DNA of 64,000 nucleotides from Macrostomum lignano (Eukaryota). Below are positions 38,723-64,000 of this stretch, piece after piece. Within the stretch, counting starts at the first letter, position 1. Every line of letters begins with the position of its first letter. The DNA lies in NCBI GenBank assembly GCA_002269645.1, contig NIVC01000759.1:310001-374000 (forward strand), written 5' to 3'. The position numbers and the translations under genes were made by a program. The notes beneath the pieces are model-generated. The model was not told the origin of the DNA. It searched no databases and worked only from the letters and a program-made list of their open reading frames with translations.

Positions 38723-38810
<88 letters not shown>

Positions 38811-38861
38811 GGCGCCTCCAATCTCAGGCACGGACGCGGTACATGTAAAAAGGACAAACAA
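37010..38861 (-). mobile_element. Penelope-like element 1: RT ORF with truncated GIY-YIG
   Basis: KGLNFIPT, KADKGNAVV, FYLLPKIHK, DVQSLYS, GTAMG, YFRYIDDIF; GIY-YIG stops at IIYGISC...FYVGMT; (CT)n tract near the ORF start. Confidence 0.92.
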
Positions 38862-38877
38862 GTCAAGTTGATTTAAG

Positions 38878-38918
38878 TTGCCGATATTTCGAATTAGGTA
38901 AATTCTTCGTCAGGGCAA
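38878..38918 (-). ncRNA. Minimal type I hammerhead ribozyme upstream of the PLE-1 ORF
   Basis: UUGCC CUGACGA a GAAUU-uaccu-AAUUC GAA AUAU C GGCAA; intact core. Confidence 0.85.
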
Positions 38919-39494: not shown

Positions 39495-41137
39495 TCAATC
39501 AGTGGTGGACTCCAGTCGACTGGGACAGAGCAGCTGCCAGAGGTTCCGCCCTTTGGTGTAGGCGGGCAGCACCGGGGCCTCGCAGCACCGGGCCACGCGG
39601 TCCTTCACCGCGGCCACCAGGGCGTCCGACCTCGCACAATGGGGCAGGATCAGCGGGATGGCCGGGTTGTGCAGCGTGCCGGCAAGCTCGTTGACGCCGT
39701 GCGGGGTTTGAGTCTTTAACACCTCGATGAGCTTGGCCTCGTGGCGCTGCCGCCGCTCGTTCGCTCTGGGTCCCGTGCCGTCACGAGACCAGATGCCGGT
39801 GAAGGCGAAGTCCGCCAGACTGTGGCCATCACTGGTGAAATGGCGGGCCACCGGAGTGTCACGGGCGTGCCGGATATCGCCGATGTGCGCCAGCATGCGG
39901 CCGCGGATGCTGTTGGCGGTCTCGCCTACGTAGACCGTGTGGTCGCACCGGCGGCAGAACACGGCATAGACGGCGTTGGTGGCGTTGCAGTCGATCCGCT
40001 GACTGATGATGAGCTGGACTGTCGTGGCTCTGATCCGGGTCAGACAGAGGCGAACCTGGCGTGCGCCTGGCAGCACCTGCACAGCCGGGTCGGGTTGCAC
40101 GGCAGAAAGCCGAATTCCCACCGTCTCGTCGGGTAGAAGCCCAGCTCCGTCAGCATCTCGTACTTGATCGTGCGCAGGAACCGCCGATTGTAGCCCTGGT
40201 GTTGCACCAGACTTGAAAACAGCCCGGTGCACGCTGCGTCGAAATCGGCCATCAGGGAACACCGCCGGGCGTATCTGAGGAGCTGGGACTTCACCACGCC
40301 CCGGAACGTCCGCTTCGGGTGGAAAGAGTCGCGGTGAATGAGCGTTCGGCTGTCGGTCGGCTTAAAAATACACCTTAGTTGCCAGGCGCTTAACGTCACC
40401 CTCGCGGTCCCAGAAGACGGTGGTATCCAGGAAGTTGACCTCGGTGCTGCTGTAGCTCAGCTGCAACCTGATGTTCGGGTCGAGGCCATCCAGGAGCTCG
40501 TGGAAGCGGACCAGCTCGTCTCTCGTTCCGTGCCAGACGCCGAAGATGTCGTCGATGTAGCGCAGCCACAGGGCGGGCTTCTGCGGGCTGAGCTCCAGGC
40601 CCCGCTGCTCCCAGTAGCCCATGTAGATGTTACTGTAGCTGGGTGCAAACGATTTTCCCATGGCCGTGCCTTTCACTTGCAGAAAAAATTTGCCATCGAA
40701 CTCGAAGTCGTTGCGCTCCAGGTTCAGCTTGAGCAAACTGAGGAGGCTCGCGTCCGGGCGCCGGGCGTCCGGGTGCTCTCTGAAGGCCCTCTGTACGCAC
40801 TCGAGTCCGGCCGCGGTCGGGATGTTGGTGTAAAGGCTGGCGACGTCCATGGTGAACAGGAAGGTCTCACCCCGCGCCGGGCAGGTGATGTCTCTGATGG
40901 CCGCCTGGAAATGATCGGTATCCCTGATGAAGCTGGGCAGCTGGATGACGATCGGCTGCAGGAAGCTGTCGATGAAGCGGCCGCTGGCATATGATTCGCT
41001 GTCCACGTCAGACACGATGGGCCGGCCTGGCGGGATGTCGCCGAGCGGCCACGACTCGGCAGGCTTGTGAATCTTTGGCAGGATGTAAAAGCGTCGCGTC
41101 CGGAACTCCTCCTTCGGGCAGAAGGCGGTGAACTGGC
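39495..41137 (-). mobile_element. Penelope-like element 2: GC-rich RT + complete GIY-YIG, frameshifted
   Basis: FYILPKIHK, MDVASLYTNI, GTAMG, LRYIDDIF, VYAVFC...VYVGET...RM.AH...EAKLI...HGVN spread over several frames. Confidence 0.9.
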
Positions 41138-41297
41138 GTTGTCAAATTCTCTACCAGTTTTTGGTTCTCAAGCACAAACAAGTTGCACCCATCCCTTCTA
41201 AGTCTGCGGGGAACCTCCTTCACTGATTTCCCGGTGAAAGGGAGCGGGCTGGTATTGGCAAGACCCCTCTTTTTGAAAAAGGAAAAAGTCTTTCTCT

Positions 41298-42685: not shown

Positions 42686-43159
42686 TCAACGAGAACCCAA
42701 GCTGAACAGCTGCAGACTCCGTGAGCGCTTCTGAGCTTTGCTCGGATCAAAGGAGACCTGCCGAGCGAGCTGTGACACGGTCTGAGCAACGCAATAGTAC
42801 TTTATAATTTCGCCTCTCTCATTTCTGAACTCGTACGGCTTCTCCGCCATGTGCCGCCTCACGAGAATCATGATGTCCTCCAGGTGCTTCTCCGTGTAAA
42901 ATTGCTCGATGTAGTCGCACAGGGTCTGCACGAAGACGCTGCCAGTCTGAGGGTCGCGGTAGGACACCTGACCCTCTGTGGTAGGGAAGCAGAACAGGAA
43001 GTCACTCTCTGGCGGGTACAGGGCCGGGTTCTGCGCGAACTCTGGGGGCAGCTGGTCTGATAGCGGCCCCCTGTGCGTCACTTCGCCTTTGCCTGTGCCG
43101 CGGCAGGCCTGGACAAAGAAGAGCTTCGGCTTGCCCGCCAGGTCGGGGCAGACGGAGGC
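42686..43159 (-). CDS. Caspase last exon (catalytic Cys and p10)
   Basis: GKPKLFFVQACRG, DFLFCFPTTEGQVSYRDPQTGSVFVQTLC; acceptor ctccag at 43161-43160, phase 0. Confidence 0.93.
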   Translation of the reverse strand, partial: ASVCPDLAGKPKLFFVQACRGTGKGEVTHRGPLSDQLPPEFAQNPALYPPESDFLFCFPTTEGQVSYRDPQTGSVFVQTLCDYIEQFYTEKHLEDIMILVRRHMAEKPYEFRNERGEIIKYYCVAQTVSQLARQVSFDPSKAQKRSRSLQLFSLGSR

Positions 43160-43245
43160 CTGGAGGAGGGTTGGGAAATGTGTAGAAATTTGTAGAGCTG
43201 CAATGCTTTGTATCATATGCACAGATGAGCCAGACCCAGACCCAC

Positions 43246-43603
43246 CTTGAACTTGGCTGCGAGCTCCAGAACCGGACTCTGCACTCCATGGCCATCGATA
43301 ATGCAGTCCCTTCCCTGTGCGTCCTTGCGGCCGTGGGCCATCAGGAAGCAGACAAAACTGCCGTGCTTGGCGAGCTCCTTGGACTTCTTTGTCTCATTGA
43401 GGAAGTCATCGATCTCTGCAGTTGTGGGATTTTGCTTCTCCATGATGGTGAAACTCAGCTTCCTGAAAAGCTTCCTCACTCGGTCCACATCCCGCTCCGA
43501 GCCTTTGCGCTCCTCTTCGCCGCTGCCAGTTGAGTACGCGTTGATGTTGATGATGAGGCAGAATCCCTGCGGGTTCGTCACCTGGTAGAAATCCTCATGG
43601 AGT
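43246..43603 (-). CDS. Caspase p20 exon (catalytic His)
   Basis: PQGFCLIINI...RKGSERDVDRVRKLFRKLSF...FVCFLMAHG; acceptor ttccag at 43605-43604, donor GTGGGT at 43245. Confidence 0.92.
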
Positions 43604-43998
43604 CTGGAATGCAGCAGGGTGATCGGGGTGTGAAGCAAAGAGTGCAGAACAAGAATCTCCGGAGACCTTTGCCTGATTCTGTGGGAAGTTTTGCCCGAGA
43701 ATGCTATGGGATGCCGTGGAATGCTGTGGGCACACTGTATTATATATATTCTCTTCCTTACTAAACCTAACTGATCATTGTTATATCTCTGAAGAAAATA
43801 AAAATTAAGAAAAAATCGAAGCAAATCATATTCTATGAGCGTAGCATGCAGCCCACAAAAAAGCTTTGACTTCATTTAAAAATCTTTTTTTTTCTTCAAA
43901 ATTTAATGCAATTAATTAGCTCGTAAATCCAGCATTCAATTTTTAATGTCACTGTAAGAGACGTGCCAATATATCCGCTTTTTTCATACAAAACTTAC

Positions 43999-46900
43999 GG
44001 AACTGTCGGCGTCTTCTCAGACTGGGACCTCTGCTGGTGCCGCCGCTCAGCGATCCACCGCGTCAACTGAGACCCGTGCCGAGAGTTCAGCTTTGCGTAG
44101 TCAGCAACAGACTTTCGCTTCCATGGAAGAAAGTGCGAGGCATCCCTTAGATCAAGGACAGAGACATCCAGTAAGTCAACGATGAAGCTGAGCGTTTCGA
44201 CATCTTGATATTGAGCAGCCACATGAGCCGCTGTAATCCCGTTAAAACTTCTGTTCAAAAGACATGACCGGCCGAGTTGCTGAACGAGCCACTTAAGACA
44301 GGAGTTAGTAGCTTCATTCTCAGCGGCACAGTGAATGACAGTGCGTTGTAAGTAGCCAGGCTGATGGAAGCAGTCGGATCCGAGGACTGATTTGAAGAAC
44401 TGCATGGAATCGGCGTCCTGCTTCCAAGCAGCGAGATGGACGGGAGTGTTTTCTTGTTGGTCTCGAACGGAGAGACAGTCGGTTCCGCACTCGTTCACCA
44501 GCCACTTGAGACAGGAGTTAGTAGCTTCATTCGTAGCGGCACAGTGAATGGCAGTGCGTTGTAGGTAGCCAGGCTGATGGAAGCAGTCGGATCCGAGGAC
44601 TGATTTGAAGAACTGCATGGAATCGGCGTCCTGCTTCCAAGCAGCGAGATGGACGGGAGTGTTTTCTTGTTGGTCTCGAACGGAGAGACAGTCGGTTCCG
44701 CACTCGTTCACCAGCCACTTGAGACAGGAGTTAGTAGCTTCATTTAAAGCGGCCCGGTGAATGGCAGTGCGTTGTAAGTAGCCAGGCTGATGGAAGCAGT
44801 TGGATCCGAGGACTGATTTGAAGAACTGCATGGAATCGGCGCCCTGCTTCCAAGCAGCGAGATGGACGGGGGTGTTTCCTTGTTGGTCTCGAACGGAGAG
44901 ACAGTCGGTTCCGAACTCGTTCACCAGCCACTTGAGACAGGAGTTAGTAGCTTCATTCGTAGCGGCCCAGTGAATGGCAGTGCGTTGTAAGTAGCCAGGC
45001 TGATGGAAGCAGTCGGATCCGAGGACTGATTTGAAGAACTGCATGGAATCGGCGTCCTGCTTCCAAGCAGCGAGATGGACGGGAGTGTCTCCTTGTTGGT
45101 CTCGAACGGAGAGACAGTCGGTTCCGAACTCGTTCACCAGCCACTTGAGACAGGAGTTAGTAGCTTCATTCGTAGCGGCCCAGTGAATGGCAGTGCGTTG
45201 TAAGTAGCCAGGCTGATTGAAGCAGTCGGATCCGAGGACTGATTTGAAGAACTGCATGGAATCGGCGTCCTGCTTCCAAGCAGCGAGATGGACGGGAGTG
45301 TTTTCTTGTTGGTCTCGAACGGAGAGACAGTCGGTTCCGCACTCGTTCACCAGCCACTTGAGACAGGAGTTAGTCTTCTTTCTCATAGCGGCTTGGTGAA
45401 TGGCAGTGCGTTGGCAATTGCCAGGCTGATGGAAGCAGTCGGATCCGAGGACTGATTTGAAGAACTGCATGGAATCGGCGCCCTGCTTCCAAGCAGCGAG
45501 ATGGACGGGAGTGTTTCCTTGTTGGTCTCGAACGGAGAGACAGTCGGTTCCGCACTCGTTGACCAGCCACTTGAGACAGGAGTTAGTCTTCTTATTCATA
45601 GCGGCTTGGTGAATGGCAGTGCGTTGGAGTCGGCCAGGCTGATGGAAGCAGTCGGATCCGAGGACTGATTTGAAGAACTGCATGGAATCGGCGCCCTGCT
45701 TCCAAGCAGCGAGATGGACGGGAGTGTCTCCTTGTTGGTCTCGAACGGAGAGACAGTCGGTTCCGCACTCGTTCACCAGCCACTTGAGACAGGAGTTAGT
45801 AGCTTCATTTAAAGCGGCCCGGTGAATGGCAGTGCGTTGTAAGTAGCCAGGCTGATGGAAGCAGTCGGATCCGAGGACTGATTTGAAGAACTGCATGGAA
45901 TCGGCGCCCTGCTTCCAAGCAGCGAGATGGACGGGAGTGTTTCCTTGTTGGTCTCGAACGGAGAGACAGTCGGTTCCGCACTCGTTCACCAGCCACTTGA
46001 GACAGGAGTTAGTAGCTTCATTCGTAGCGGCACAGTGAATGGCAGTGCGTTGTAGGTAGCCAGGCTGATGGAAGCAGTCGGATCCGAGGACTGATTTGAA
46101 GAACTGCATGGAATCGGCGTCCTGCTTCCAAGCAGCGAGATGGACGGGAGTGTTTTCTTGTTGGTCTCGAACGGAGAGACAGTCGGTTCCGCACTCGTTC
46201 ACCAGCCACTTGAGACAGGAGTTAGTCTTCTTATTCATAGCGGCTTGGTGAATGGCAGTGCGTTGGAGTCGGCCAGGCTGATGGAAGCAGTCGGATCCGA
46301 GGACTGATTTGAAGAACTGCATGCAATCGGCGCCCTGCTTCCAAGCAGCGAGATGGACGGGAGTGTTTCCTTGTTGGTCTCGAACGGAGAGACAGTCGGT
46401 TCCGCACTCGTTGACCAGCCACTTGAGACAGGAGTTAGTCTTCTTATTCATAGCGGCTTGGTGAATGGCAGTGCGTTGGAGTCGGCCAGGCTGATGGAAG
46501 CAGTCGGATCCGAGGACTGATTTGAAGAACTGCATGGAATCGGCGCCCTGCTTCCAAGCAGCGAGATGGACGGGAGTGTCTCCTTGTTGGTCTCGAACGG
46601 AGAGACAGTCGGTTCCGCACTCGTTCACCAGCCACTTGAGACAGGAGTTAGTAGCTTCATTTAAAGCGGCCCGGTGAATGGCAGTGCGTTGTAAGTAGCC
46701 AGGCTGATGGAAGCAGTTGGATCCGAGGACTGATTTGAAGAACTGCATGGAATCGGCGTCCTGCTTCCAAGCAGCGAGATGGACGGGAGTGTTTCCTTGT
46801 TGGTCTCGAACGGAGAGACAGTCGGTTCCGCACTCGTTCACCAGCCACTTGAGACAGGAGTTAGTAGCTTCATTTAAAGCGGCCCGGTGAATGGCAGTGC

Positions 46901-48966
46901 GTTGTAAGTAGCCAGGCTGATGGAAGCAGTTGGATCCGAGGACTGATTTGAAGAACTGCATGGAATCGGCGTCCTGCTTCCAAGCAGCGAGATGGACGGG
47001 AGTGTTTCCTTGTTGGTCTCGAACGGAGAGACAGTCGGTTCCGCACTCGTTCACCAGCCACTTGAGACAGGAGTTAGTAGCTTCATTCGTAACGGCCCAG
47101 TGAATGGCAGTGCGTTGTAAGTAGCCAGGCTGATGGAAGCAGTCGGATCCGAGGACTGATTTGAAGAACTGCATGGAATCGGCGTCCTGCTTCCAAGCAG
47201 CGAGATGGACGGGAGTGTTTTCTTGTTGGTCTCGAACGGAGAGACAGTCGGTTCCGCACTCGTTCACCAGCCACTTGAGACAGGAGTTAGTCTTCTCATT
47301 CATAGCGGCTTGGTGAATGGCAGTGCGTTGGAGTCGGCCAGGCTGATGGAAGCAGTCGGATCCGAGGACTGATTTGAAGAACTGCATGGAATCGGCGCCC
47401 TGCTTCCAAGCAGCGAGATGGACGGGAGTGTCTCCTTGTTGGTCTCGAACGGAGAGACAGTCGGTTCCGCACTCGTTCACCAGCCACTTGAGACAGGAGT
47501 TAGTAGCTTCATTTAAAGCGGCCCGGTGAATGGCAGTGCGTTGTAAGTAGCCAGGCTGATGGAAGCAGTTGGATCCGAGGACTGATTTGAAGAACTGCAT
47601 GGAATCGGCGTCCTGCTTCCAAGCAGCGAGATGGACGGGAGTGTTTCCTTGTTGGTCTCGAACGGAGAGACAGTCGGTTCCGAACTCGTTCACCAGCCAC
47701 TTGAGACAGGAGTTAGTAGCTTCATTCGTAGCGGCCCAGTGAATGGCAGTGCGTTGTAAGTAGCCAGGCTGATGGAAGCAGTCGGATCCGAGGACTGATT
47801 TGAAGAACTGCATGGAATCGGCGTCCTGCTTCCAAGCAGCGAGATGGACGGGAGTGTTTTCTTGTTGGTCTCGAACGGAGAGACAGTCGGTTCCGAACTC
47901 GTTCACCAGCCACTTGAGACAGGAGTTAGTAGCTTCATTCGTAGCGGCCCAGTGAATGGCAGTGCGTTGTAAGTAGCCAGGCTGATGGAAGCAGTCGGAT
48001 CCGAGGACTGATTTGAAGAACTGCATGGAATCGGCGTCCTGCTTCCAAGCAGCGAGATGGACGGGAGTGTTTTCTTGTTGGTCTCGAACGGAGAGACAGT
48101 CGGTTCCGCACTCGTTGACCAGCCACTTGAGACAGGAGTTAGTCTTCTTATTCATAGCGGCTTGGTGAATGGCAGTGCGTTGGCAATTGCCAGGCTGATG
48201 GAAGCAGTCGGATCCGAGGACTGATTTGAAGAACTGCATGGAATCGGCGCCCTGCTTCCAAGCAGCGAGATGGACGGGAGTGTTTCCTTGTTGGTCTCGA
48301 ACGGAGAGACAGTCGGTTCCGCACTCGTTGACCAGCCACTTGAGACAGGAGTTAGTCTTCTTATTCATAGCGGCTTGGTGAATGGCAGTGCGTTGGAGTC
48401 GGCCAGGCTGATGGAAGCAGTCGGATCCGAGGACTGATTTGAAGAACTGCATGGAATCGGCGCCCTGCTTCCAAGCAGCGAGATGGACGGGAGTGTCTCC
48501 TTGTTGGTCTCGAACGGAGAGACAGTCGGTTCCGCACTCGTTCACCAGCCACTTGAGACAGGAGTTAGTAGCTTCATTTAAAGCGGCCCGGTGAATGGCA
48601 GTGCGTTGTAAGTAGCCAGGCTGATGGAAGCAGTCGGATCCGAGGACTGATTTGAAGAACTGCATGGAATCGGCGCCCTGCTTCCAAGCAGCGAGATGGA
48701 CGGGAGTGTTTCCTTGTTGGTCTCGAACGGAGAGACAGTCGGTTCCGCACTCGTTCACCAGCCACTTGAGACAGGAGTTAGTCACCTTATTCATAGCGGC
48801 TTGGTGAATGGCAGTGCGTTGGAGTCGGCCAGGCTGATGGAAGCAGTCGGATCCGAGGACTGATTTGAAGAACTGCATGGAATCGGCTCGATCTGCTCGC
48901 ACTGCGAAAGCAATGCTCCTGTAAGATGTCTGATGGCATGTGCGCAAGTGTATGTACATTTGCTCG
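43999..48966 (-). CDS. Ankyrin-repeat exon (22 x 71-aa double-ankyrin units plus cap) of an ankyrin-caspase
   Basis: 213-bp tandem units encoding QRTAIHxAAxN and xxTPVHLAAWKQ; open for about 5 kb; donor GTAAGT at 43998 (phase 2) splices in frame to the caspase exon (CC|A). Confidence 0.88.
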
Positions 48967-49585
48967 CTGTACAATGCAAGCGTGTCAGAATATAAGCGAG
49001 TGCTTTGGCGGCAGTCAAGTGTCGGTCTAAGCCTTAAGCCACTTTCTCGTCTCGGCTTATTCTATGACTAAAGGTTCTTCCACACCGCCATCAAATGAAG
49101 CCAATTTTGAAGTGATCACACTAAATTTGAGTTGATGATTAACGAATCCTTGACAATCACCTCAGTTTTTCACGCCATCAACTGACTTTTTACGAGTGAT
49201 CGCAAGCGGTCACACTGCAATCAACCGACTGATACTGAGGAGAATGACTGCCCTGTGGATAATTGGGACGTTTCTTCGGCAGCATTTTTTGCTGGAAACG
49301 GACTAAAGCAGACAGAAATTCTGTGGTCTCCGCAGTGCTAGAGGAAACTGCTTAATTCGGCAGTTTCGTCACGCTAAATGTGCGGAAACGAAGAAAGAAA
49401 CGAATTAAAATATTAAGTCGTTTCCTACGCAGTTTTCAACCAAAGGATCGTCCTTTTTCCTGTTATTTCGATTGTCAGGGTGCCGAAGGTCGTATAGAAC
49501 AGGATTTTCTTGCACCTTCTTTACCAGGGGTTTCAGTGGCAACCAACGGGCGCTGTTTTTTCACGCTTGCTCATTTCGCTTATGT

Positions 49586-50329: not shown

Positions 50330-51370
50330 CTAGTCTTGTCAACATGTTTTAGCGGCCGCCTCAATACCAGCTGGACAGGACTTTGGGCGTTGGCTGGCCA
50401 GATTCAACAATTTCGCATCTTCCAGTGGATCAGCGCAAGAATGTGCTGCTATCATTCCTCGACGATAAATCATATCAAGCGGCCAGCAATTTGGATGCTG
50501 CCCTGTCCCAGAACGGCTTTGAGAAGGCTCTGAAAAATCGATTTCGGCCATCGACATCATCTGCTGAGCTGCAGGCGCAGTTCTTCAATCTGACTCAAAA
50601 GGACGGTCAGTCGGTTGCAGACTATTCCGATGCTCTGATTGTTGCGGCAAAGCGCGCTTTCCCGAGTTGATGGAGACGAAAGCAGGAGACGTCAGTGACA
50701 GCGAAGGACGAGCTGCTCTAAGGTCGGTTTCTATCCGGATTGAGGGACCCAGTTGTGCAAATGCAGATGCAGATGCAGATGCAGCCAAAGGCGAAATTCG
50801 CTGATGCGGTGGAAACAGCGCGATTCGTGGAATCTATTCAGTCGCAAGGAGCCGCCGCTACGGATCTAGCTGCTGAGGTTCCCGAAGCCTTTGCATTCGA
50901 AATTCAACGGTCTCTGCAGGAGCTGTCCAACAAGCTCAATCGCTGGGAGACAAAGGACCAGGATCATTGTGAGAGTGGCGACAGACGCAGAGTTGTGACA
51001 TGCTGGAAGTGCGGTAGGCCGGGCCATGTTCAAAGATTTTGCACTCAGAAATCAGGAAACTTCGGTGGAGCGGCGACCGCCGGGGTGCCGTTCCGCAAGT
51101 GAAAATCTCAGTGCACCCAGTGGTGGAGGTGTCCTGCTCAGCCACTGGTGCTAACGTGCTGGTGAACTGTAGCATCCTGCCAATGTGTTTCCCTTCGGAG
51201 TCCCGCAGTCGGTGCACACCGACCAGGCTCGGAACTGGGAGTCGCAGCTGTTTCAAGAGACGATGCGGCTGCTGAAAATCGACAAGACTCGGACGACAGG
51301 CTACCACCCTGAAGGAGACGGCGGTTGCGAATGGATGAACCGGACGCTGGTGCAACTGTTGCGAGCATGA
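50330..51370 (+). pseudogene. Ty3/Gypsy remnant: gag with zinc knuckle fused to an integrase-core fragment
   Basis: FFNLTQKDGQSVADYSDAL, CWKCGRPGHVQRFC (CX2CX4HX4C), then GVPQSVHTDQ...TTGYHPEGDG.CE.MNRTL; RT/RNase H missing. Confidence 0.8.
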
Positions 51371-51778: not shown

Positions 51779-52522
51779 CAGAAAGCTCGCCACAGAGCAC
51801 GAATTGGCCGGCAACAATGTCCATGCAAGTAGTAGGAGTTAGCAGAACACGGCCGCAGGAAATTCCGTGGAAATTCCGTCACTGGTTTATGTACTGGAGA
51901 GATGGCTCCTAGAGCCCTGATCGCCTAAAACTTACAAGCCTTCGCTGAGTAGCAGGTATGGGGGAAGGATGAGCATTGCAACTACATGTATAGGATTTCA
52001 TGTAAGCATAAAGCAGCGGTAGGAGCAGAAAACGAGAAGCGCGTATGAATAAAATAAATAGTGGGTGCTGTGCGTATACTGTGCATGTATATGGCTGTGT
52101 CTGACTTTTGAGATGGTATAGAAATGCAACTGTTTTTTAATCATTTATGCATAGTAGAAGATACTGAAATTATAATAGGCTCGTATGCTTTTAAAAATTT
52201 GCCAATTCGCAGGCTTTGTTTGCTTACTCTTTCGGCCTGGAGCTTCTTTTTGTAAAAAATGCGAACTATCGCTGTGTAGTGTGTGAACACAGCGCCTATG
52301 TAAATGCGTTGGTGCACTCTGTCGCAGTGAAAGCCACTGAAATTGGGTGGAGCCGCTGCTGTTTTATGTTTGTAATATGCATGCTTGAATTGAAATCAGC
52401 CCAGAACTGTGCCTGCAGTGTGAAGTGCTGTGCATCTGGAGTGGGGGAGGCTAATGTATACTGGCCAACCCTTTCCTAGCATTCACCCACCCTCCGGCAC
52501 CCACCCCACTCCGCCATGAGGA

Positions 52523-52530
52523 TATAAAAG
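52523..52530 (+). promoter_or_regulatory. Canonical TATA box upstream of the PC4-like gene
   Basis: TATAAAAG about 70 nt before ATG 52599, preceded by C-rich boxes. Confidence 0.55.
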
Positions 52531-52598
52531 GGCCAGCTTTGAAAAGCATTTTTAAGATCATACTTCACTTTTTAATCTCTGAAGACTTCACGTGAATC

Positions 52599-53337
52599 AT
52601 GGACAGCGGCGAAGGCTACAAGGTACAGGTGCAGGAATTTGAAGGGCAAAAATTCATCGCCATTAGGAAGCACCAGCGCCAGCCTCAAGCCTGGAGTTCC
52701 CGGCTTCAATCTGAATACGCATCAGTGGGCGAAACTGAAGGAGGTAAAACGCTCGCTCGTGAAGGCCGCTCTAAGCGGTGAAACCAAGGTTGTGAAATTG
52801 GGCTTTGACAAGTTTATTGAGGTCAAACAAGGAACAATTTGGTTGAAGCGACTGCCCGAGGACTGTTGCGAGGAGTTTCTGAGACGCAACACAGTGCCTC
52901 TGTCTCCGCTCTTGTGGCAAAAACTGTGGCACGCTTCCGGTTGATTTGACAAGCAGCTGGCAGAGCTCTCTCAAAGCATGCGAATGAACTATGAGCTGAG
53001 CTCATCTGACGACGATGAAGAGGTCACCGTGAAGCTTCCCATCAAGACTGAACCGAATGAGGGTGAAGAAGAGGCCCGCTCACCAACAGAGCTGACGATC
53101 GCTACTGAGCCGGTGACTTCAACGCCTCTGCCCCGAGCTGGCGCTGGGAACATCCCGTCAGAGGACACAAACTTGCAAGAAGATCCAGTATGGTATCAAT
53201 TCCGGGCTCATGCGGCTGCGGTGAACAACAGCAGAAAGCGCAAGCAACCGTGGGCTCTGCGCAGGCAGAATGCGGTCAAGAGGCCGAGGTGGATACCCCG
53301 TGACGAGCTGCCGAACTCGGACGAAGATGATGAGTGA
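52599..53337 (+). pseudogene. PC4/Sub1-like ssDNA-binding protein (possibly two PC4 domains) with acidic tail
   Basis: YKVQVQEFEGQKFIAIRKH + LKPGVPGFNLNTHQWAKLKE matches PC4 VSVRDFKGKVLIDIREY...[20 protein letters not shown]; one frameshift near 52675 and an in-frame TGA at 52942. Confidence 0.75.
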
Positions 53338-53716: not shown

Positions 53717-54440
53717 ATGGAAAAGATATTCTTTAATCCCGAGCAGCCTGCCAGTTTTTCTGGTTGCAACAAACTTCTGAATGAGGCTCGAAAACAAGGT
53801 ATCAAAGTGGGAGAAAAATCTGTTAAGAATTGGCTTAACGAACAGGCAGTTTACACTTTACATAAGCCATAAATCCATAAGATGGAACCAAACTTTGAAG
53901 AATAAAATGTGGCGATACTTCACTCACAACAGCACTCTGCACTGGGTAGATGTGCTGCCAAAGTTAGTGAAGTCGTACAATGCTACTTTTCACAGAAGCA
54001 TCAGAATGGCACCAAGAAATGTTTGCAAGCAAAATGAGTCGGAAGTGTGGATGAACCTGTATGATGGCAAGGCAATAGAAACTTTGGATAAAGTCAGGAA
54101 ACCAAAGTTCAGTGAAAATCAAACTGTAAGAATTTCCAACCCACCCCGGCTATTCAAAAAAGGGTACAAAGCAAACTGGAGTGAGGAAGTGTACACTGTA
54201 GTTGCAAAAGCTCCGAAACATAATCCTTACATGTACAAGATCCGAGACATGAAGGGAGAAGAGATTCAAGGCCTCTTTCACGAGCACGAGCTGCAGGCGG
54301 TGCCGGACTCACAGCGACTATACGTGATTGAGAAAGTGTTGAAGACACAAAAGCAAAGAGGGAAAATTCGCTATCTTGTCAAGTGGGCCGGCTACGATTC
54401 GACAGGCTGGGTGGATGAAAAAGACTTAAGAAAGGTTTAG
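53717..54440 (+). pseudogene. Retroviral-type Polinton integrase with C-terminal chromodomain, catalytic core deleted
   Basis: MEKIFFNPEQPASFSG...WLNEQAVYTLHKP joins directly to WNQTLKNKMWRYFT...YN.TFHRSI; chromodomain YVIEKVL...YLVKWAGY. Confidence 0.88.
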
Positions 54441-54468: not shown

Positions 54469-55287
54469 ATGATTATAATGCGAACTATTTTGATTAACAG
54501 TGAGCATGCTGAAGGTACTCCTAGTGACTTTAATTTTTACCTGTCTTCACCTATTCACTTGGATCGAAATGTGGACCATGAGGCAGGTCTGGCTGAAATC
54601 CATCTGCCTGCTGCATGGTTCATTGTTGACGAGCCTTACTGCTTCACTGTCTCAGATGGAAGAGAGCATGAGGCCCTGGTTCTTCAACCCGGACGATTTG
54701 CTAGAGTGGAGGAGCTGGTAGAGCGCCTGAATGAGCTGCTGGCCAACTCTGATTCGCTGTTCTTTGATGCAATGAGTGACAGGGAGTCTGAGATGGAGGC
54801 CGATGAGTCCGGCCTGATGGGGCGTAGTGGCAACAGGGAATTCGGTATGAAGTTCGAAATCCGCAACTCACGAACTGTGGTGCACAACAACACTACGAGA
54901 GCAGAGCTGTTTCTCCCATCCAGCAAAATTCTGCATTGGCTGGGATTCGGAAACCAGGCTGTGAAAATCCAGCCAGGAAGCCGCGTGTCCGAGCATTGCA
55001 TTGGCTGCCCGCGCACCAGCTTAATCAATGTGCACTGCAGTATCGTTGAGTCAACTAATTGCAACTGGGGCTCCCTGTTGAGAACAGTCGGAGTGAACGG
55101 CAACATTCAATGTGGCAACTACCTGTCAAAAATATTTAAGAAAACAATATTCTTCCCGATTCAACGAATCAGTCTTCTTCACAGCATTCGAGTTCAGCTG
55201 AGGGACATCTATGGTTGCCTACTGATTGCACAGACTCACAGCCCTGTTCTGCTCACAGTTCAGATTCGAGAGAAACGCATTCAATGA
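54469..55287 (+). CDS. Minor capsid (penton) protein
   Basis: INS...PSDFNFYLSSPIHL...GLAEIHLP...INVHCSIVE...LLRTV...FFPI...SIRVQLRD; position between integrase and MCP. Confidence 0.75.
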   Translation: MIIMRTILINSEHAEGTPSDFNFYLSSPIHLDRNVDHEAGLAEIHLPAAWFIVDEPYCFTVSDGREHEALVLQPGRFARVEELVERLNELLANSDSLFFDAMSDRESEMEADESGLMGRSGNREFGMKFEIRNSRTVVHNNTTRAELFLPSSKILHWLGFGNQAVKIQPGSRVSEHCIGCPRTSLINVHCSIVESTNCNWGSLLRTVGVNGNIQCGNYLSKIFKKTIFFPIQRISLLHSIRVQLRDIYGCLLIAQTHSPVLLTVQIREKRIQ

Positions 55288-55661: not shown

Positions 55662-56945
55662 ATGGCTTACGGATTCAATCCCAGACTTGATTTATTTAAG
55701 ACGCCCATTCTACAAACCTGCATTGAAAAAGCTACTTATGTTGATATTCACCCAGTAAATTCCATTACTGCAAACTCCCCCATTGAATTTGATTGCCACC
55801 AATCTGCCGATGAATACACAGATCTGCCTAATTCTTTTCTTTATATTCGCTGCCGCCTTGTGAGACTGGATGGGGGTTTGCTGAGGGAGGATGTTCGAGA
55901 CGGGGATGGCATCATCACCGAGCGCAGAGACAGTGATGTGCACCCATAAAATTTTGTTTTGTCTACAGCCTTCTCAGATGTAATTGTAAGCATTAACCAG
56001 CGAGTGGTGTCTGGTGGAGACCAGCTCTATCCCTACCATGCGTACTTCAAAGCACTAATGAGCTCATCCGATGGCCAGCAACTAAAACTTTACCCTGCTG
56101 GCTTCCTGGAGCCGAACTCGGCAGCTGAAGAGCACACGGAGAGCCACAGGGAATCCCGATGGATGGAGTATGCGGGGCCGCTCTTCAGCGATGTTTTCCA
56201 GTGCCCAGTGTTTCTGCTAAGCAATCTGCACTTGCACATCAAACTGGTGCCCAGCGATGGGGCCTTTGCCATCAGAAGCCCGAATGCAAACAACGCGGCA
56301 TACCGAATGGAAATCTCTCACAGCATTCTGCATCTTCGCCGAGTCAAAGTGGTGCCCCACATCAGTCTGGCTCACGAGCAGGGGCTGACAAACCAAAATG
56401 CACTGTATCCCATCGAGCGAACTGAAATGCAGAACTTCATCCTACCCCAGGGCATCCAATCTAAAAACATTGAAGGATTCACTCATGGAAAATTGCCGAA
56501 GTTCATCATGCTGGCCTTCGTGAGCCACCGTGCATTCAATGGTCATCATCACGCGAGCCCATTCCAGTTCCAGAGCTTCAACCTCAGCCGGTTGGCTCTA
56601 AAGAAAGGTGGGGAAACCGTGTGCCACGGCGCCTTTACACCTGAAAACAATTCCTTCGTAAGAGAATACTTGCACTACCTGAAAAGCTGTCAATCTGCAA
56701 GCCCCACAAATTCGGTCCCGTGGATCCCCTACCAGCTCTTCTCCAACAACACCACGGTGTTTGCATTCGATCTCACACCCGAGGGAGCGGCTCTGTGGTA
56801 CGGACAGAAGGAGGGCAACCTGCGGCTGGAGATTCGCTTCCAACAGGCACTGAATGAAGCGGTGTCCTTGATTGCTATGTGCCTGTATGACTCGCTGATT
56901 GAGGTCACCAAGCACCGGGAGCTTTTGCTGGACTATTCCTCTTAA
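55662..56945 (+). pseudogene. Double-jelly-roll major capsid protein with one in-frame stop
   Basis: LDLFKTP.LQTCIE...PIEF...YTDLPNSFLY, YPYHAY, LPKFIMLAFV...FNG...PFQFQSFNL, FAFDLTP, GNLRLEIRF; TAA at 55947-55949 in frame with both halves. Confidence 0.9.
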
Positions 56946-56950
56946 CTGGC

Positions 56951-57481
56951 ATGGACGCAATTAAACTATTCAATCTCGCCAAAAAAATTTTGCCTTGCCA
57001 AAAATTTTCTATAATTACTTTACATTTGCGCTATAAAAATTCTCTGCCCTTGAATGTAAAAAGAAAATTTCGATCATCAATTTCCCTTGAAAACAAGTTT
57101 GTTTTTGCTCTACTTCAGCTCAATGGCTCATTTGGTCACTGGGCGGTGTGCTATGTTGGGCAAGGAAATTGCATTGAGTTGTTCAACTCCCTCGGCTGGG
57201 AACCTGAAATTTTATCTGTGGTTTATAATTTGTTTCGAGAGATTAAAACAACTGGCTTTTGGCTCCGAAGCAATCTAAACAGATTTCAATGTGCTAACTC
57301 TAATAAATGCGGAATGTTTTGCATCTATTTTGCTTATCAAAAGTTTCTGTTCAATCGGTCATTTGAGGGGATTCTGAAGCATTTGCATGCTAATGAAAAA
57401 AATCATTTGAATGATAGAATCTTACAGAGGTTTGAAGCCAACTTAAGAAAAAGATGTTCTAGAACTATATTTATGCATTAG
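56951..57481 (+). CDS. Adenain-like cysteine maturation protease
   Basis: GHWAVCYV...ELFNSLG...FQCANSNKCGMFCIYF; His, Gln and Cys present, usual acidic triad residue reads Asn. Confidence 0.85.
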   Translation: MDAIKLFNLAKKILPCQKFSIITLHLRYKNSLPLNVKRKFRSSISLENKFVFALLQLNGSFGHWAVCYVGQGNCIELFNSLGWEPEILSVVYNLFREIKTTGFWLRSNLNRFQCANSNKCGMFCIYFAYQKFLFNRSFEGILKHLHANEKNHLNDRILQRFEANLRKRCSRTIFMH

Positions 57482-57483
57482 AC

Positions 57484-58130
57484 ATGGAAGAAAAGCGAGT
57501 TTGCTACGATATCCGCCTCAGGCAGGGAAGCTGCATGATTGTCTGCGGGCCCACCAATGCAGGAAAAACAACCTTTGTCAAACACCTGATCCAGTACAGA
57601 GACGTCATGTTTGATGTGAAGCCTGGCAGAGTTCTGTGGTACTATGGGATCTCACAGGCAGGCCATGCAGAACTGAGCAGCCTAGGTGTGCAGCTGCGCC
57701 AGGGATTTCCCACCAACATCGAGGCAGCACTTAGGCCCAATGACTGGTTGTTTTCGATGACTTAATAGAGGAAACTTCAAATTCTGCTTCAATGCGAAAT
57801 TTTTTCACAGGAATCGCACATCACTTGCCGTGCTTTTTGGTGATGCTGACTCAGAATATATTTTTCAAGGGAAAAGAGTCGCGAACAATGAGCTTGAATG
57901 TAATGTATTTAGCTATCTTGAAAAACCCCAGAGACCAGCTGCAGATTGCAGCACTGGGCAGGCAGTGCTTTACAGAGAAGCCCGGCTTTCTGCTGTCAGT
58001 GTTCAAGCACGTGACCGCGCAGAACAGGGGAGCCTACCTGTTCCTAGACTTTCACCCATCAACTCCCGATGAGCTGCGAGTGCGGGCCAGAATTCTGCCC
58101 AACCAGCGACCCCATCTTGTATTTGCTTAA
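57484..58130 (+). pseudogene. FtsK/HerA-type (A32-like) packaging ATPase, frameshifted
   Basis: Walker A GPTNAGKT; 1-nt loss in Walker B (L)VVFDDL near 57747; HH...LTQNIF...RT.SLN..Y...KNPRD. Confidence 0.9.
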
Positions 58131-58172: not shown

Positions 58173-58508
58173 ATGGAAGTGCTTGATTCTCACGAAAGTC
58201 TTTTTGCGGTTCTTGCGTCACCTAAATATACCGTGCGCTTCAAGCGGCTGTTGATAAAAAATTGTTCAAAAGAAGTGCGTTATTTTCTTGTCGAGGCCTG
58301 CCATAATCTCTTACAAAACAATCTATCGTTTTCGCTCGATGAAAAAGCTGTTCTTGCAAAGTCAAAAGAGATAATTCGAAAAATTACTCACCAAAGAAGA
58401 AAGACAGACTTGTTGAAGGCTGGCTTCATCAAAATACTCCCGATTCTGCTTAAGCTGGTAAAGAAGAAGCAAAATGAACAAATTTTCAGAAATGGTTCTG
58501 ATTCCTAA
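58173..58508 (+). CDS. Conserved small Polinton protein
   Basis: LIKNCSKEVRYFLVEACHNLLQNN...GFIKILPILL resembles the conserved Maverick ORF found next to the ATPase. Confidence 0.6.
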   Translation: MEVLDSHESLFAVLASPKYTVRFKRLLIKNCSKEVRYFLVEACHNLLQNNLSFSLDEKAVLAKSKEIIRKITHQRRKTDLLKAGFIKILPILLKLVKKKQNEQIFRNGSDS

Positions 58509-59208
58509 AGCAGAGTATGAGATGTTGATTCAGAATTTGAAGCCAAATGAGACTACCACTGAAGCTGACTTGAAGCAGGCTCAGAAGAAATGCGATGACA
58601 TCTTGTATGCCGAAGATTGTCCAGAAGATGTGAAAACCACCATGTATCAAAGTGCAATGCAAAGTTTGCTGGCCAAGCGCAAGCACGCTGGAAAAGAAGG
58701 AGTACGCAATGCTGAAGCCAAGTTGATGAAAACAGAGACACCCCAGATGAACACCTGGGAAGAGAAGATCAGCAAGTCGGTGCCACAGAAATTCAAAACC
58801 AGGGCTCGCAGTCTATGGACGATCCTGTCCACCAATCCAGAGCTGATTGGAGTTTGTGAAAACGGGGAGGTGGAAATCACAGGCACTTCAATCCCTTCCT
58901 CAAACATACTGGACTTGATTCAGCACGCAGTGAGGGATTCGTCATGTGAGCGTGAACCAGTTGGGTGGAACGAGTTCATCGATTTGCTGCAGCAGAAAAA
59001 GCTTAATGTTCCGCTTTCCGCTATTGGTAAATCAGTTAAGAAGAAAATGGTAACCAGCAGAGGGAGTGAACTGGAGAAAGAACAGGCGAGTCTAGTCAAG
59101 GGGTACGGAAGCAACACAGCCTGGCTGAAACTGTCTGGCAGAAAAGTATATAAGAAGGTGGACTGTCTCCGAAATTTCTCCGGAAAGCTGCATCATGAAC
59201 TACATTGA
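58474..59208 (+). CDS. Conserved Polinton hypothetical protein
   Basis: EMVLIP... and GEVEITGTSIPSSNILDLI...PVGWNEF motifs seen in Maverick/adintovirus ORFs. Confidence 0.6.
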   Translation: MNKFSEMVLIPKAEYEMLIQNLKPNETTTEADLKQAQKKCDDILYAEDCPEDVKTTMYQSAMQSLLAKRKHAGKEGVRNAEAKLMKTETPQMNTWEEKISKSVPQKFKTRARSLWTILSTNPELIGVCENGEVEITGTSIPSSNILDLIQHAVRDSSCEREPVGWNEFIDLLQQKKLNVPLSAIGKSVKKKMVTSRGSELEKEQASLVKGYGSNTAWLKLSGRKVYKKVDCLRNFSGKLHHELH

Positions 59209-60031
59209 CTTCCAAGGATTCCCGTGCAACAGCACAAGCAAAACATTTGTTGTGAAGGAGTTGGCAGTTGTTCAAATCAGAGCGGGAAGCTACCGCATTG
59301 CTCACCATGTGTACGCACCTCCGTATCCATGGGAGAGAGTCTCACCTGACATGCGAGTTTGCTACAGACAGCTATCAAAGAGTCTGCACCAGTTTAAGTG
59401 GAGTGATGGAACCCGTCCGTACATGGAACTGGCGGAAGACATTCTGAGCATTGCCAGTGGTCCGATCTGGACAAATGGGGAAAGGAAGTCTATTTTCCTG
59501 ACTGAGCTGCTTGGTAGACAGGTTTATAACCTAGAAGATTTGGGAGCACCATCGATTGAAGATTCAGATACTGGCTGTGCAGTGAGAAATTCATTGCTGC
59601 ACTACAGTTGGCTTAAGCCAAAGTTCTGCATCAACTTAAGAAGCGAGCAGTGTCCGTGGCACACGAGCAGAAGATTTGCTGAAGAAGTCAAGGATAGAAA
59701 TGAGCCCACCAGCTGCAGCCCTAAGAGTGACCAATCTGGTTGGCGGAGTGGATCTGAGGCTGGATGGTGGCAGGGGCGCCCAGCTGCCTCTACGGGAACT
59801 GGCTCTCAGCATGGCTCATGTGATCTACCGGCCCGTCTGGCCCCGGGTGCTCATCAAGCGGATGCGGAGTCCCAGAGTGACTCTGCTACTCTACCCTACT
59901 GGGCAACTGAGCATCTGCGGTGCCAAGACCCACGCAGACGCCAAAAGGGCTGCCCGTCGCTTCGTGGCTATGCTGCATCGGAGAGTGCCGGCTCAACTGC
60001 TGCCTCATCAAACTATTTGTGTTCGAATTAA
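59195..60031 (+). CDS. DEDD/RNase H-like exonuclease-related viral protein; the 3' part overlapping the TBP gene is probably read-through
   Basis: YIDFQGF...FVVKELAV...APPYPW...WSDG..PY...NLEDLGAP motif set. Confidence 0.55.
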   Translation: MNYIDFQGFPCNSTSKTFVVKELAVVQIRAGSYRIAHHVYAPPYPWERVSPDMRVCYRQLSKSLHQFKWSDGTRPYMELAEDILSIASGPIWTNGERKSIFLTELLGRQVYNLEDLGAPSIEDSDTGCAVRNSLLHYSWLKPKFCINLRSEQCPWHTSRRFAEEVKDRNEPTSCSPKSDQSGWRSGSEAGWWQGRPAASTGTGSQHGSCDLPARLAPGAHQADAESQSDSATLPYWATEHLRCQDPRRRQKGCPSLRGYAASESAGSTAASSNYLCSN

Positions 60032-60272
60032 AACTATTACTGCTCATGGCCAACTTTCGCTCAGTTCTGCATTGTCCCTACCAAAACTGTCTATGAATTT
60101 AGCAAAAGCTGAGTATGAACCTGAATCTTTTTCTGCTTTAATTTTCAAGCTGAAGTTTTGTAAATGTCTGCTATTTCACCGCGGCTCCTTTATTCTAAGT
60201 GGTGCTCGATCTTTTTTTCAATTGCAAACAGATCTCATGCGATTAAAACGTGTAATTTGTAACTCAGCGTAA
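59700..60272 (+). CDS. TATA-box binding protein (TBP) homolog
   Basis: Two TBP half-repeats: VTNLVGGVDL...MRSPRVTLLLYPTGQLSICGAKT and AEYEPESFSALIFKL...LLFHRGSFILSGARS; AATAAA follows the stop. Confidence 0.88.
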   Translation: MSPPAAALRVTNLVGGVDLRLDGGRGAQLPLRELALSMAHVIYRPVWPRVLIKRMRSPRVTLLLYPTGQLSICGAKTHADAKRAARRFVAMLHRRVPAQLLPHQTICVRIKTITAHGQLSLSSALSLPKLSMNLAKAEYEPESFSALIFKLKFCKCLLFHRGSFILSGARSFFQLQTDLMRLKRVICNSA

Positions 60273-60410: not shown

Positions 60411-61009
60411 TCCCAATTAAAACACGCAAATGACAAACATAAAACAGCAGTGGAAACAATAAATGGATGTAATAAAAAGTGCTAAATATTGCTCAAAAGA
60501 AAGGAAAATAAAAAAGGTCCATTGCCTGACACCAATTGGAAAAATGTGCGTTAAAATAGCTATATCAGATTCAGCACAAATGTTGCCAACGAAGTGAGCG
60601 ATGATGAAATTACCGGTATGAGCAAAATGACAGGTTTGTAACGAAACACGACTAAAAAACATGAGAATGTAATTACATGGGCTATGACAACATAGCAATT
60701 ACACTTCAGCATGTTGAACGTATTACAAAAGCTATCAGATAGTTTAAAAGAGCAATAAAGCAAATAACTACGAGTACATTTTAAGTCATGCGATATTTTA
60801 AGTAAATCAAAGCCTATGCGTTAGTTTAAAATAAATTTGAATATGCTCATAAACAATAATATAAGATTGGAAAATTTCGAGAAATTTAATGTCGATAAAC
60901 GTAAGTATGAAAAAAATGAATTAGACTGGCTTGATTATGGATAGCAATAAATGATGTAATCGTCGTAAGTCGTTCAAATAAATGTTAATGATGCATCCCT
61001 CACGTTTAG

Positions 61010-64000
61010 TCACTGTTGAAGATCTGGAGGCCGCTTCCTCTTCCGGGATGGTGCATCAGATTGGCCAAGACGGAAGTGGCCGAACGGGAGGCTGTCATTT
61101 GCGCTGATCCAGGCCCGTTTGTCTTCCCAGATGGTGAGGGCTCGCTTCCTCTGTCGAACTGTGAACACTTCATGTCGATGGCTTGCAATTCGGTGTGTAA
61201 CAACATCAAGCGTCTTCAATGACTCAAATGCAGCAACATAGTCCGCATGATTAATTTGCTGCTTCAGTACGGCTCTCTGAATTCCTTTTGCGCCCTTCTT
61301 ATGAGCGGAAGCGGCGGAGCTTTGAAAACTGTACAGTTTTGGTCGGAGGAGAATCCACTCTTTGTACTCAATTCCGCAGGATTCATCCTTGACACAACCG
61401 AGTTTGGCTTTTAACTCTGTAGACTTAAGCGGGTGTCCGTCAACATAGTTTGATGTGTCAAGAATCCGCCTTTTGATTAACTCTGGCAGGAACTCTTGCA
61501 CAGGGTCAATATTCCTGATGCAAAGGAAAAAAGAATCTATGTCACCTCCACAGAGCTGTAGCCGAACTTTCTCGTCTTCAAACCACGGTTTAAGTTTGTT
61601 GTACCACAGCGAATACATAAACAACTTAGATAGATCAAGGACGCACTGACCTATGTAAATTGGTCTGTCCAGGCACACGGTTGTTTTGCTCAGCTCAAAT
61701 ATGCTCAAGTCCTGGTTGATGATAATGACTTCTTTTAAATTGGGCTTTGAAGCCAAAATCCTGGCCTTTACCTCGGAATTGCAGATTCTGATCAATCTCC
61801 GTTTACTGACGTTTTCCATCGCCTTTCCAAATACCGAATTAATCTTGAGCTTGTAGTAGAACTTCTCAAACTCTGACTTTGATGCAATCCTTCGCTCAGT
61901 ATTCTTGCGAATGTAAGGATCCAGGATAGCAGCCTGCGAGAACTGTATTGCTCGCTAAAATTTAGCGACTAGCATTCCCTGCTCAATGTAGAATTTCAGA
62001 GTTCTGCTGTGAACGACGTAGCTCTGCTTGTCAAAGCAAGTTAGCAACAGTTTTTTACAACTATTATAGTTATGGCCATCTGGATTCAAACGTTGCCATA
62101 GATCTTGCATGAACTCTGGAAAGTCTGCAAACTCCAGTTGGGATTTCTCCGGTGCCAGTGGCAAGTCACTCGTTTTGTCATGAATTTCGGGTGGGCAAAT
62201 CAGGTCAACCTCGACCAGAAATGCTGTTGGCGCATCGTCTGGGTGATTCAAAATAGTGGCATCAGTCCAAGTCATCAGTTCTTCAGGCTCAACCCACTTG
62301 AATTCTTTGTAGGGCAGCTGCATTGATAGCGCAACACCGTAAAGATTATTGACATCAAGAGGAATGAGTGATGCTGACTCATTTGCTGACTTCTCCATCG
62401 CCACCTGATGTACATTAACAAAACACATACCACCACGAATACCTTCTTCAAACATCCTATACATTGTGTTGTCAGTTAGTACCAGTAGCTCCAGCTTGAC
62501 TCCAGTACTTTTCAAAGCCGAAGAGAAGGATAATCCAGGAGTGGATATGAAGTGGACTGGATCTAATCCATCATCTAGAATACTAAGACGCCTGAACGAC
62601 TCAAAGACATCAGCAAGCTGCCTAACATCAAGCTGGAGGTAAGCAAGCATGTAGTCTTTTAAATTCGCTGCACCAAATTCATCCCATGCCCTCCTCGCTC
62701 GTTCATACTGCTCGGTGGTGCATTCACTCTTTGAGAGGGTGCTGAAAAATTCCTGACGAGGTGGTAGCTCGTTTAGCTCCAAGTCAGCTGTGCTTTGTAC
62801 AAACTCATAGGGAAAGACACCTTTGGCTTCAAGAGTGACATCAGTGAGAGTGGGATAGAACTCCTTTAGGGATTCGGTGTGGATTCGTTCATCCTTCGGT
62901 AAATCTCTAATAGGAGAGTTTAAACTGCTGCTGAGAAATTGGAAAGAGTCCAAAAATTGGATCGTGGCATAGAGTGGCACAGTTTTTCCTTGAATAACGA
63001 CTTCATTAACTTGCACTTCGGCGGTTAGAGACAGGCATTTCTCTGTCGTAATTGGTACAACACTTAGACGCCAGTGCCTCATTTTTCCCAGTGCTACAGA
63101 AAAGAGAAAATGCATGTCGTAGTTCTTTAGGTTATGGAACAGAACAGGTAAATAGCGTCGCTTTAGCTGAGCAGCAATGTTACACTTGGAGCATGCAGCA
63201 CCTCGAAATTCACCAGACAGGTGATCATGATCCCAAACCTTTAAAATGGTGTCCTCATTGAACTTCTCATGACAGTAATAGCACGTATCGGCTGCTTCAA
63301 ACAGGCTTTGAGCGTTTGGATCAATAATCTTCGGCTGATAACTGTGGCTCCTGTTCCACTCATAAATTTCGCGCGCAAGCTGTTCAAGAGAAAGAAGAAG
63401 TTGCTCAATGCAGTTCTCTGTCGAAGAGGCTGTAAAGGCTTCATACATTGATTTGGAGTCTCTGAGTGCAGGTCCTTTAACACCTGCTCTTTGGACAATC
63501 AGATACCCAGCAGCTGCTGGTGTATGATGAGAAATTTTTTGTAGCCCTGCTGGAATTTCAGTGTTCATGGGAACATTGAAGGACTCCAAATCTGCATAAA
63601 CTACAAATGGTGGAGAAACTGTTTTCTCATAGCTCGTAAAGGACATTATGCTCTTTTCTTTGGTGGGCATAATCTCTTTCACCATACAGCTGTTTGATTG
63701 GTAACAATCTTCACGATGAGCACTAAGACGCTCAGTAGATTTGAAACCTGTCAAGCATCTCTCGCACCATTTTCTCTGGTGCAGTCCATCATGACTATTG
63801 AGCAGACGGTTGAGATTTACAATCCCACACCAATGTCCTTTTTCAGAGTTGTTGGCTTTTGAAAAAAGTAGCAGTGGAACTACGATTCTTCCTTCGGCGA
63901 CTTCTACCTTTGGCTGTCTTAAAACTTCCACTGTTCCATTCTTCCACGTCAGCACAGTGAAGCACACGTTAGAATTTCTTTTCTCAACTTGTTCAAGGCT
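61010..64000 (-). pseudogene. polB: Protein-primed family B DNA polymerase (pPolB) with one in-frame stop; 5' end outside the window
   Basis: Exo VYADLES, FHNLKNYD, LDSFQF; inserted CxxC...DHDHLSG.FRG.AC.KCN domain; Pol motifs LDVNNLYG, KLKINSVFGK, GDIDSF; TAG at 61955-61957 in frame with both halves. Confidence 0.95.

Follow-up and report, generated by a model that had tools for sequence, protein, structure and literature searches.

Mavericks/Polintons and the animal adintoviruses (PMC8502044) share with the element analysed here terminal inverted repeats, a protein-primed DNA polymerase B (pPolB), an rve integrase, a protease, an ATPase and capsid genes. The main text of PMC8502044 contains no mention of PC4, and for TBP it offers only a label in a figure legend, given to some MELD viruses; in the sections of that paper available to us, no description of adintovirus promoter classes was found. 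Likewise, no single-stranded DNA-binding protein (SSB) is named for Polintons or adintoviruses in the literature examined. Viruses with a pPolB often encode unusual, non-OB SSBs (PMC4889955, excerpts).

The C-terminal domain of human PC4/SUB1 and fungal Sub1/MoSub1 (PF02229; 1pcf, 4usg, 4bhm) resemble the first repeat of the element protein at about 30% identity and an rmsd of 1.3 Å, with R86, W89 (as Y) and G99 kept. Human PC4 is a homodimer (type II) with one repeat per chain, whereas the element protein carries two repeats in each chain. It also differs from human PC4 in that R100/K101 are replaced and the serine/acidic, lysine-rich N-terminal region is missing. Its long C-terminal tail is closer to that of yeast Sub1, where the domain stands first and the long C-terminal region behind it acts in transcription (PMC9600219, excerpts). 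In having (four strands + helix) twice within a single chain, the element protein resembles the type I PC4-like domains of PURA (repeats I-II), Whirly and MRP1/2; asymmetric type I domains bind only one strand, according to the available part of PMC7549692. Scallop has two intronless, two-domain PC4 genes of 212 aa and mussel has up to 18 PC4 genes, which are treated as host genes in the portions of PMC9223095 at hand.

Viral precedents exist for both replication and transcription. Phage Drc binds ssDNA and recruits RNA polymerase (PMC7145618, excerpts). The phage T5 PC4 homologue (PDB 4bg7) is, like the element protein, a viral PC4 fold, and the partial account available ties it to DNA replication; it differs in being a homodimer, in its bacterial host and in acting in recombination-dependent instead of protein-primed replication. 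The beta/gamma-herpesvirus viral TBP (KSHV ORF24, EBV BcRF1) is comparable as a viral TBP mimic with a non-canonical box upstream of structural genes, but the late pre-initiation complex of those viruses comprises six viral proteins, as far as the accessible parts of its descriptions go, whereas the element TBP is a bare core. We know of no PC4-fold member of the herpesvirus complex.

The element and the state of its genes

The window (the whole 64,000-nucleotide stretch of Macrostomum lignano DNA analysed, to which all positions refer) includes most of a Maverick/Polinton of about 17.5 kb, of which the PC4-like gene (52599-53337, plus strand, ATG at 52599) is the first gene (Table 1). The element has terminal inverted repeats with AG...CT ends. 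A 6-bp target-site duplication was not seen at this copy, where the flanking 6-mers differ; the mismatch may come from recombination between copies or from a join in the assembly. Within the element, the PC4-to-TBP block is flanked by a 40-nt inverted repeat (85%; 52353-52392 and 60414-60453), which is also present in a sister copy.

Along the plus strand, the order is PC4-like gene, integrase, putative penton, small basic ORF, putative major capsid, protease, ATPase, three unnamed ORFs and the TBP-like gene, and a Cys/Gln-rich ORF, an acidic repeat ORF and pPolB point inward from the right end. The element thus carries the Maverick/Polinton set of pPolB, rve integrase, protease, packaging ATPase and capsid genes, with weak matches for pPolB, protease and ATPase and with the capsid genes assigned by position. 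The integrase exceeds the Pfam rve cut-off in an open sister copy. For the major capsid gene, the assignment also draws on what we take to be a family likeness. The last of the three unnamed ORFs has an N-terminal D-x-Q/E-G-F motif that is presumably DEDD-exonuclease-like.

Table 1. Features of the element, with window positions and the evidence for each
Feature	Position	Strand	Evidence and remarks
Left terminal inverted repeat	51828..52251		begins AGTAGTAG; blastn 96.8% over 432 nt vs locus L031
Canonical TATA box TATAAAAG	52523..52530	+	76 nt 5' of PC4-like ATG
PC4-like repeat 1, four strands + one helix	52599..52776	+	Pfam PC4; hhalign 99.4%; rmsd 1.3 Å to human PC4, 64 columns
Degenerate PC4-like repeat 2	52777..52962	+	hhalign; model secondary structure; pN/pS (values in text)
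Tail: Ser/acidic low-complexity, conserved aromatic-acidic motif, basic cluster, conserved L-R-R-Q-x-A-type motif	52963..53337	+	alignment, pN/pS, charge counts
rve integrase + chromodomain, broken here	53717..54440	+	rve and Chromo in open sister copy; TAAGAA box at 53680
Putative penton/minor capsid protein	54469..55287	+	position and size, no Pfam match; TAAGAA box about -42
Small basic ORF	from 55284	+	just 5' of putative major capsid gene
Putative major capsid protein, one internal stop here	55662..56945	+	position, no Pfam match
Adenain-like cysteine protease	56951..57481	+	Peptidase_C5 E 0.0036, below cut-off
Packaging-type P-loop ATPase, frameshifted here	57484..58130	+	weak P-loop family matches; TAAGAA box about -40
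Three conserved ORFs	58173..59700	+	no Pfam matches; last one overlaps TBP gene
Divergent TBP-like gene, open here	59700..60272	+	Pfam TBP 81.9 bits; TAAGAA box about -63
Protein-primed DNA polymerase B, fragmented	61010..64000	-	starts outside window; DNA_pol_B_2 E 0.0059, below cut-off; convergent with TBP
Right terminal inverted repeat, partner of left	window-equivalent 68891-69321, outside window		via locus L031

Several genes of this element copy are broken. In the PC4-like gene, the one frameshift and one stop reported in the first-pass annotation were both recovered: the frame shifts inside repeat 1, shortly past its third strand (near 52,670-52,685), and an in-frame stop lies within repeat 2 (52942-52944). 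This copy is a dead allele. Among 20 sister loci, fetched out of 50 matches from a DNA search of the genome, in 11 the two-repeat domain lies in an uninterrupted frame; in the others it has a stop (three loci), is split between frames (five) or is partial (one). Natural open copies were used for the protein analyses that followed the repair step.

A retrotransposon gag remnant with a zinc knuckle (50353-51102, plus strand) lies just left of the element, and a 1688-aa ORF (42686-49061, minus strand) consists of about 21 near-identical 213-bp units, which we take to be ankyrin repeats. This ORF lies immediately 5' of exons with a caspase domain (Peptidase_C14). At 34519-36694 (minus strand; DJR-like match), the capsid genes of a second Polinton family, unrelated to the first, are cut off by retrotransposon-type RT fragments at 36903-41141. 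This second family is of very high copy number (662 candidates), and the 98 scored are 98-100% identical.

Fold, ancestry and tail of the PC4-like protein

With X at both breaks, the window product scores 25.3 bits against Pfam PC4 (PF02229; cut-off 25, E 1.1e-5). Open copies score 37 bits in one case, 23.1 in another and 19.6 in a diverged lineage, the latter two below the cut-off, and for the 37-bit copy a search of PDB chains retrieves human PC4 and MoSub1 (E 1.7e-5 to 6e-3). The PC4 domain read earlier from the repaired frame is thus borne out, as is the second, weaker PC4-like segment: in a profile-profile comparison (hhalign) of repeat 2 with 50 canonical PC4 domains, the probability was 85% (E 6e-6), versus 0.13% for a reversed control. 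A model predicted from an alignment of eight natural copies (pLDDT 89, pTM 0.81) has (four strands + helix) twice. The two repeats in one chain are predicted to fold as a single-chain pseudo-dimer, which would make the domain type I in the terms of PMC7549692.

Fold searches point to PC4 proper for the single repeat. Foldseek against the PDB returned zero matches at E 0.001; PC4 and MoSub1 fill its first ten places, the best with E 2.9e-3 and an rmsd of 1.3 Å over 64 columns. The repeat 1 model superposes at 1.3 Å on 6ycs and 1.4 Å on 1pcf. Over the whole domain, the best PDB matches are PURA repeats I-II (TM 0.63-0.65). However, the type I domains of PURA, Whirly and MRP are only 7-8% identical to the element protein, the sequence of which is clearly from PC4 proper, and it therefore looks like an independent duplication. 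The top viral fold match is MOSUB of a Branchiostoma lancelet adintovirus (A0A5H3CIS2; E 7e-6, TM 0.78, 17% identity), and a second MOSUB, of a Bos-associated insect adintovirus (A0A5H3CT48), ranks 41 (E 0.075, TM 0.64, 9% identity). The likeness is at the level of the fold, and covers a two-repeat domain over its whole length in a protein of about 200 aa from the same kind of element. These lancelet and insect records mean that the gene type is already labelled in databases, and no description of MOSUB was found in the main text of either version of the adintovirus paper or in a literature search. The PC4-like gene is a single-chain PC4 variant of a labelled adintovirus gene type that apparently lacks a published description.

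A profile search gave 270 matches, from which 15 single-stretch two-repeat relatives were aligned with five genome copies. Across these 20 members, R86 and G99 are invariant and the W89 position is Y or F in all; Pro stands at the K101 position in 20/20, mostly hydrophobic residues at R100, and F or Y at F77 in 10/20. According to the parts of PMC4350104 available, W89Y leaves the ssDNA affinity of PC4 similar, F77A abolishes binding in human PC4, and canonical PC4 binds short ssDNA with only micromolar affinity. Because repeat 1 keeps R86 and a W89-type aromatic, and repeat 2 is without such an aromatic, ssDNA would probably be bound via one channel.

Selection was estimated from six subfamily copies, with pN/pS at 0.19 for repeat 1, 0.26 for repeat 2, 0.72 for the middle of the tail and 0.33 for the tail motif, all uncorrected and with pS (0.64-0.84) near saturation. 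Purifying selection acts on both PC4-like repeats. In a tree from an alignment of only 67 columns, with rows chosen by profile, the repeat 1 sequences of the 20 family members group on one branch apart from 20 canonical domains (99/96), and the data reject placing the five flatworm-element rows in a clade with host PC4 (p-AU 1.2e-5). The separate branch and the rejected clade argue for an old element-borne family, not a fresh capture. A host PC4 that was recently captured and is now decaying, with no role for the element, could have explained why this copy is broken and why the domain is broken or partial in nine of the 20 loci. Nevertheless, that history is largely refuted by the pN/pS values of the repeats, by the tree test and by the structural relatives in lancelet and insect adintoviruses, and we regard it as very improbable.

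The protein begins at the PC4 domain and lacks the N-terminal region found in human PC4; a Ser/acidic, Lys-rich N-terminus is present in the PC4 of the host. The acidic tail annotated earlier is present (20 D/E vs 3 K/R in the 79 residues 127-205 of an open copy), and its basic cluster appears NLS-like. An L-R-R-Q-x-A/T motif in the tail (about 53255-53275) is kept across subfamilies, reads L-R-R-T-Y-S in one diverged-lineage copy, and presumably resembles substrate or pseudosubstrate motifs of CaMK-family kinases. Tail motifs that are conserved and under selection, together with the lost R100/K101-type residues and the variable F77 position, would suit a domain mostly without nucleic-acid binding, which would serve as a scaffold or decoy and modulate host PC4 partners, DNA-damage or kinase signalling via repeat 2 and the tail motifs. 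However, R86 and the W89-type aromatic are kept in 20/20 very diverged members and repeat 1 is basic (11 K/R vs 5 D/E), which makes such a role rather improbable.

Promoters and the TBP-like gene

The canonical TATA box of the PC4-like gene, earlier put at about 70 nt upstream, lies close to that distance (Table 1). Since there are 53 TATAWAWR sites in the window, a single site means little alone. A TATA box is kept upstream of the gene in 7/7 subfamily representatives, at -56 to -112, and TAAGAA in 0/7; the upstream 130 nt of these representatives are only 37-55% identical. At 38 other gene starts from five element copies, a TAAGAR-type box was found in 28 and TATA in five. Between 52252 and 60300, all 11 TAAGAA sites are on the plus strand (mean 2.76 and maximum 8 in 200 shuffles), and in four other copies there are 6-9 sense and 0 antisense sites, some TAAGAA sites falling inside coding sequence. 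A canonical TATA is a promoter class unlike that of the capsid and packaging genes; therefore, host TBP is a more likely reader of the PC4-like gene than the TBP of the element, which suggests that this gene belongs to a host-read early class. The capsid, packaging and integrase genes are likely the class read by the element's TBP.

The right-end ORF has an upstream TATA in 4/5 copies. At locus L031 (window-equivalent about 67000-68400, minus strand), this ORF combines a Cys/His-rich N-terminus and Gln- or Pro-rich repeats with the TATA box, and is a candidate early activator. In the lineage of the window, none of the six pPolB copies showed a TATA within 330 nt of the frame start; two other, diverged copies have TATAAA upstream of pPolB. 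Additionally, in one diverged-lineage copy the terminal repeat covers the promoter (L044:1-231, L045:940-1170), and PC4 and pPolB start behind identical sequence.

The TBP-like gene that had been reported in the same element is confirmed by its Pfam match (Table 1). Its product is a bare core of 190 aa, 26% identical to host TBP, and its model (pLDDT 73, pTM 0.63) matches TBP folds in a fold search. Relative to host TBP, the first-repeat Phe pair is altered and the second Asn is replaced by Thr, at what we take to be DNA-contact positions, and the YEPE stirrup is kept. The box upstream of the gene combines TATA and TAAGAA. In the region 59129-60272, the exonuclease-like ORF continues, in both lineages, in another frame across the first half of the TBP gene. 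The synonymous divergence of the N-terminal half of TBP is far lower (pS 0.19 vs 0.73), owing either to the constraint of the overlapping frames or to sequence exchange among copies. There are three genomic matches for each of host PC4, TBP and a TRF2-like gene (L021, L081, L082), with conserved domains in single open frames.

Genome searches gave at least 107 PC4 matches and 152 TBP-like matches, of which 150 were listed; dropping nine rows that were second pieces of one locus left 141 TBP loci. Among the matches listed, a TBP match lies no more than 20 kb from 64 of the 107 PC4 matches, and for 51 of these the distance is 7.1-7.9 kb. With PC4 matches from two further searches included, 91/141 TBP loci are paired with PC4, 15 of the other 50 being too near the contig start. 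In a diverged lineage (TBP 38-39% and PC4 about 30% identical), PC4 lies about 1 kb from TBP in 9/9 TBP loci among the matches listed, in the order pPolB, integrase ... TBP, then PC4 convergent. A third PC4 type has TBP or a remnant of it at 4/6 loci, and two loci are without any other element gene. The unrelated high-copy Polinton family noted above, which bears pPolB, has neither PC4 nor TBP in the three loci scanned, the far left ends of which possibly lay outside the scan. PC4 and a divergent TBP thus co-occur in two deeply diverged lineages with different gene orders. The first-pass annotation had placed the two genes at opposite ends of the structural cluster and proposed a mini transcription-initiation kit. 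The placement is not conserved, as the genes are adjacent and convergent in the diverged lineage; the kit itself is plausible and supported in part, since the co-occurrence stands, but the N-terminus of the human coactivator is absent and the TATA class of the PC4-like gene is likely read by host TBP.

A related possibility is that the PC4-like protein is a cofactor of the element's TBP, an early product that would, at the TAAGAA boxes of the capsid, packaging and integrase genes, keep the DNA open or bring in Pol II. By analogy, the pair would form a late-gene switch of two proteins, comparable to the viral pre-initiation complex of herpesviruses. The pairing in two deep lineages of differing gene order, the TBP remnants near the third PC4 type and the joint absence from three loci of another family all favour it, as do the strand bias of TAAGAA and an element TBP altered at several host-type contacts with its stirrup retained. 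The loss of R100/K101, the yeast-Sub1-like tail (PMC9600219, in part) and the Drc precedent (PMC7145618, in part) point the same way. However, the link between PC4 and TBP may be plain shared descent, because the lineages are few (two or three), related and in one genome; moreover, the coactivator region of human PC4 is missing and several TAAGAA sites lie inside coding sequence. No named adintovirus, and thus neither MOSUB-labelled one, is among the 50 listed TBP-fold matches, a weak point as many rows are unnamed. Overall, a TBP cofactor is a possible but doubtful reading.

Possible roles in replication and gene switching

The reading that we favour, with confidence somewhat short of even, is that the PC4-like protein is an early ssDNA-binding replication helper. 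The gene would be transcribed early by host machinery from its TATA box, and the product, as a predicted single-chain pseudo-dimer, would bind the strands displaced while the protein-primed polymerase copies the linear element genome, in a role akin to that of adenovirus DBP or phage T5 PC4. Its acidic, aromatic tail may dock partners, and the protein may in addition help to turn on late genes. The kept R86 and W89-type residues, the acidic tail, the T5 precedent and the unusual SSBs of pPolB viruses are consistent with this, and so are the absent human N-terminal region, the promoter shared by PC4 and pPolB in one copy and, weakly, the presence of MOSUB in viruses without a visible TBP.

Several observations run against a replication helper. 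K101 is replaced by Pro in every member, R100 is mostly hydrophobic and only half of the members keep F or Y at the F77 position, and the micromolar affinity of canonical PC4 is weak for a replicative SSB. Within the genome, PC4 tracks TBP and not pPolB, since the other pPolB family (three loci) has neither gene, and pPolB of the window's lineage has no nearby TATA in any of the six copies. Early expression would suit a late-gene cofactor as well as an SSB that serves strand-displacement replication. Overall, a putative SSB for pPolB, which had been offered as the alternative to the initiation kit, is slightly better supported than the kit.

Both roles may also be joined in a minimal early-to-late switch, which we consider unlikely as a whole and the probability of which overlaps with both leading readings. 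The early single-chain PC4 would bind pPolB-displaced strands and hand replicating templates to the element TBP at TAAGAA boxes; this handover would proceed via repeat 2 and the tail, and capsid and integrase genes would fire only on replicating DNA. If so, MOSUB would be the missing Polinton SSB as well as a coupler of replication and transcription, and some of the 'expanded' intronless two-domain PC4 genes of animal genomes would be viral. The two promoter classes bear on the timing of Polinton capsid genes, and the role of the viral TBP is testable with reporters. The conserved, early-type single-chain PC4 is a concrete candidate for the protection of displaced strands in Polintons and adintoviruses, and can be assayed as a purified domain.
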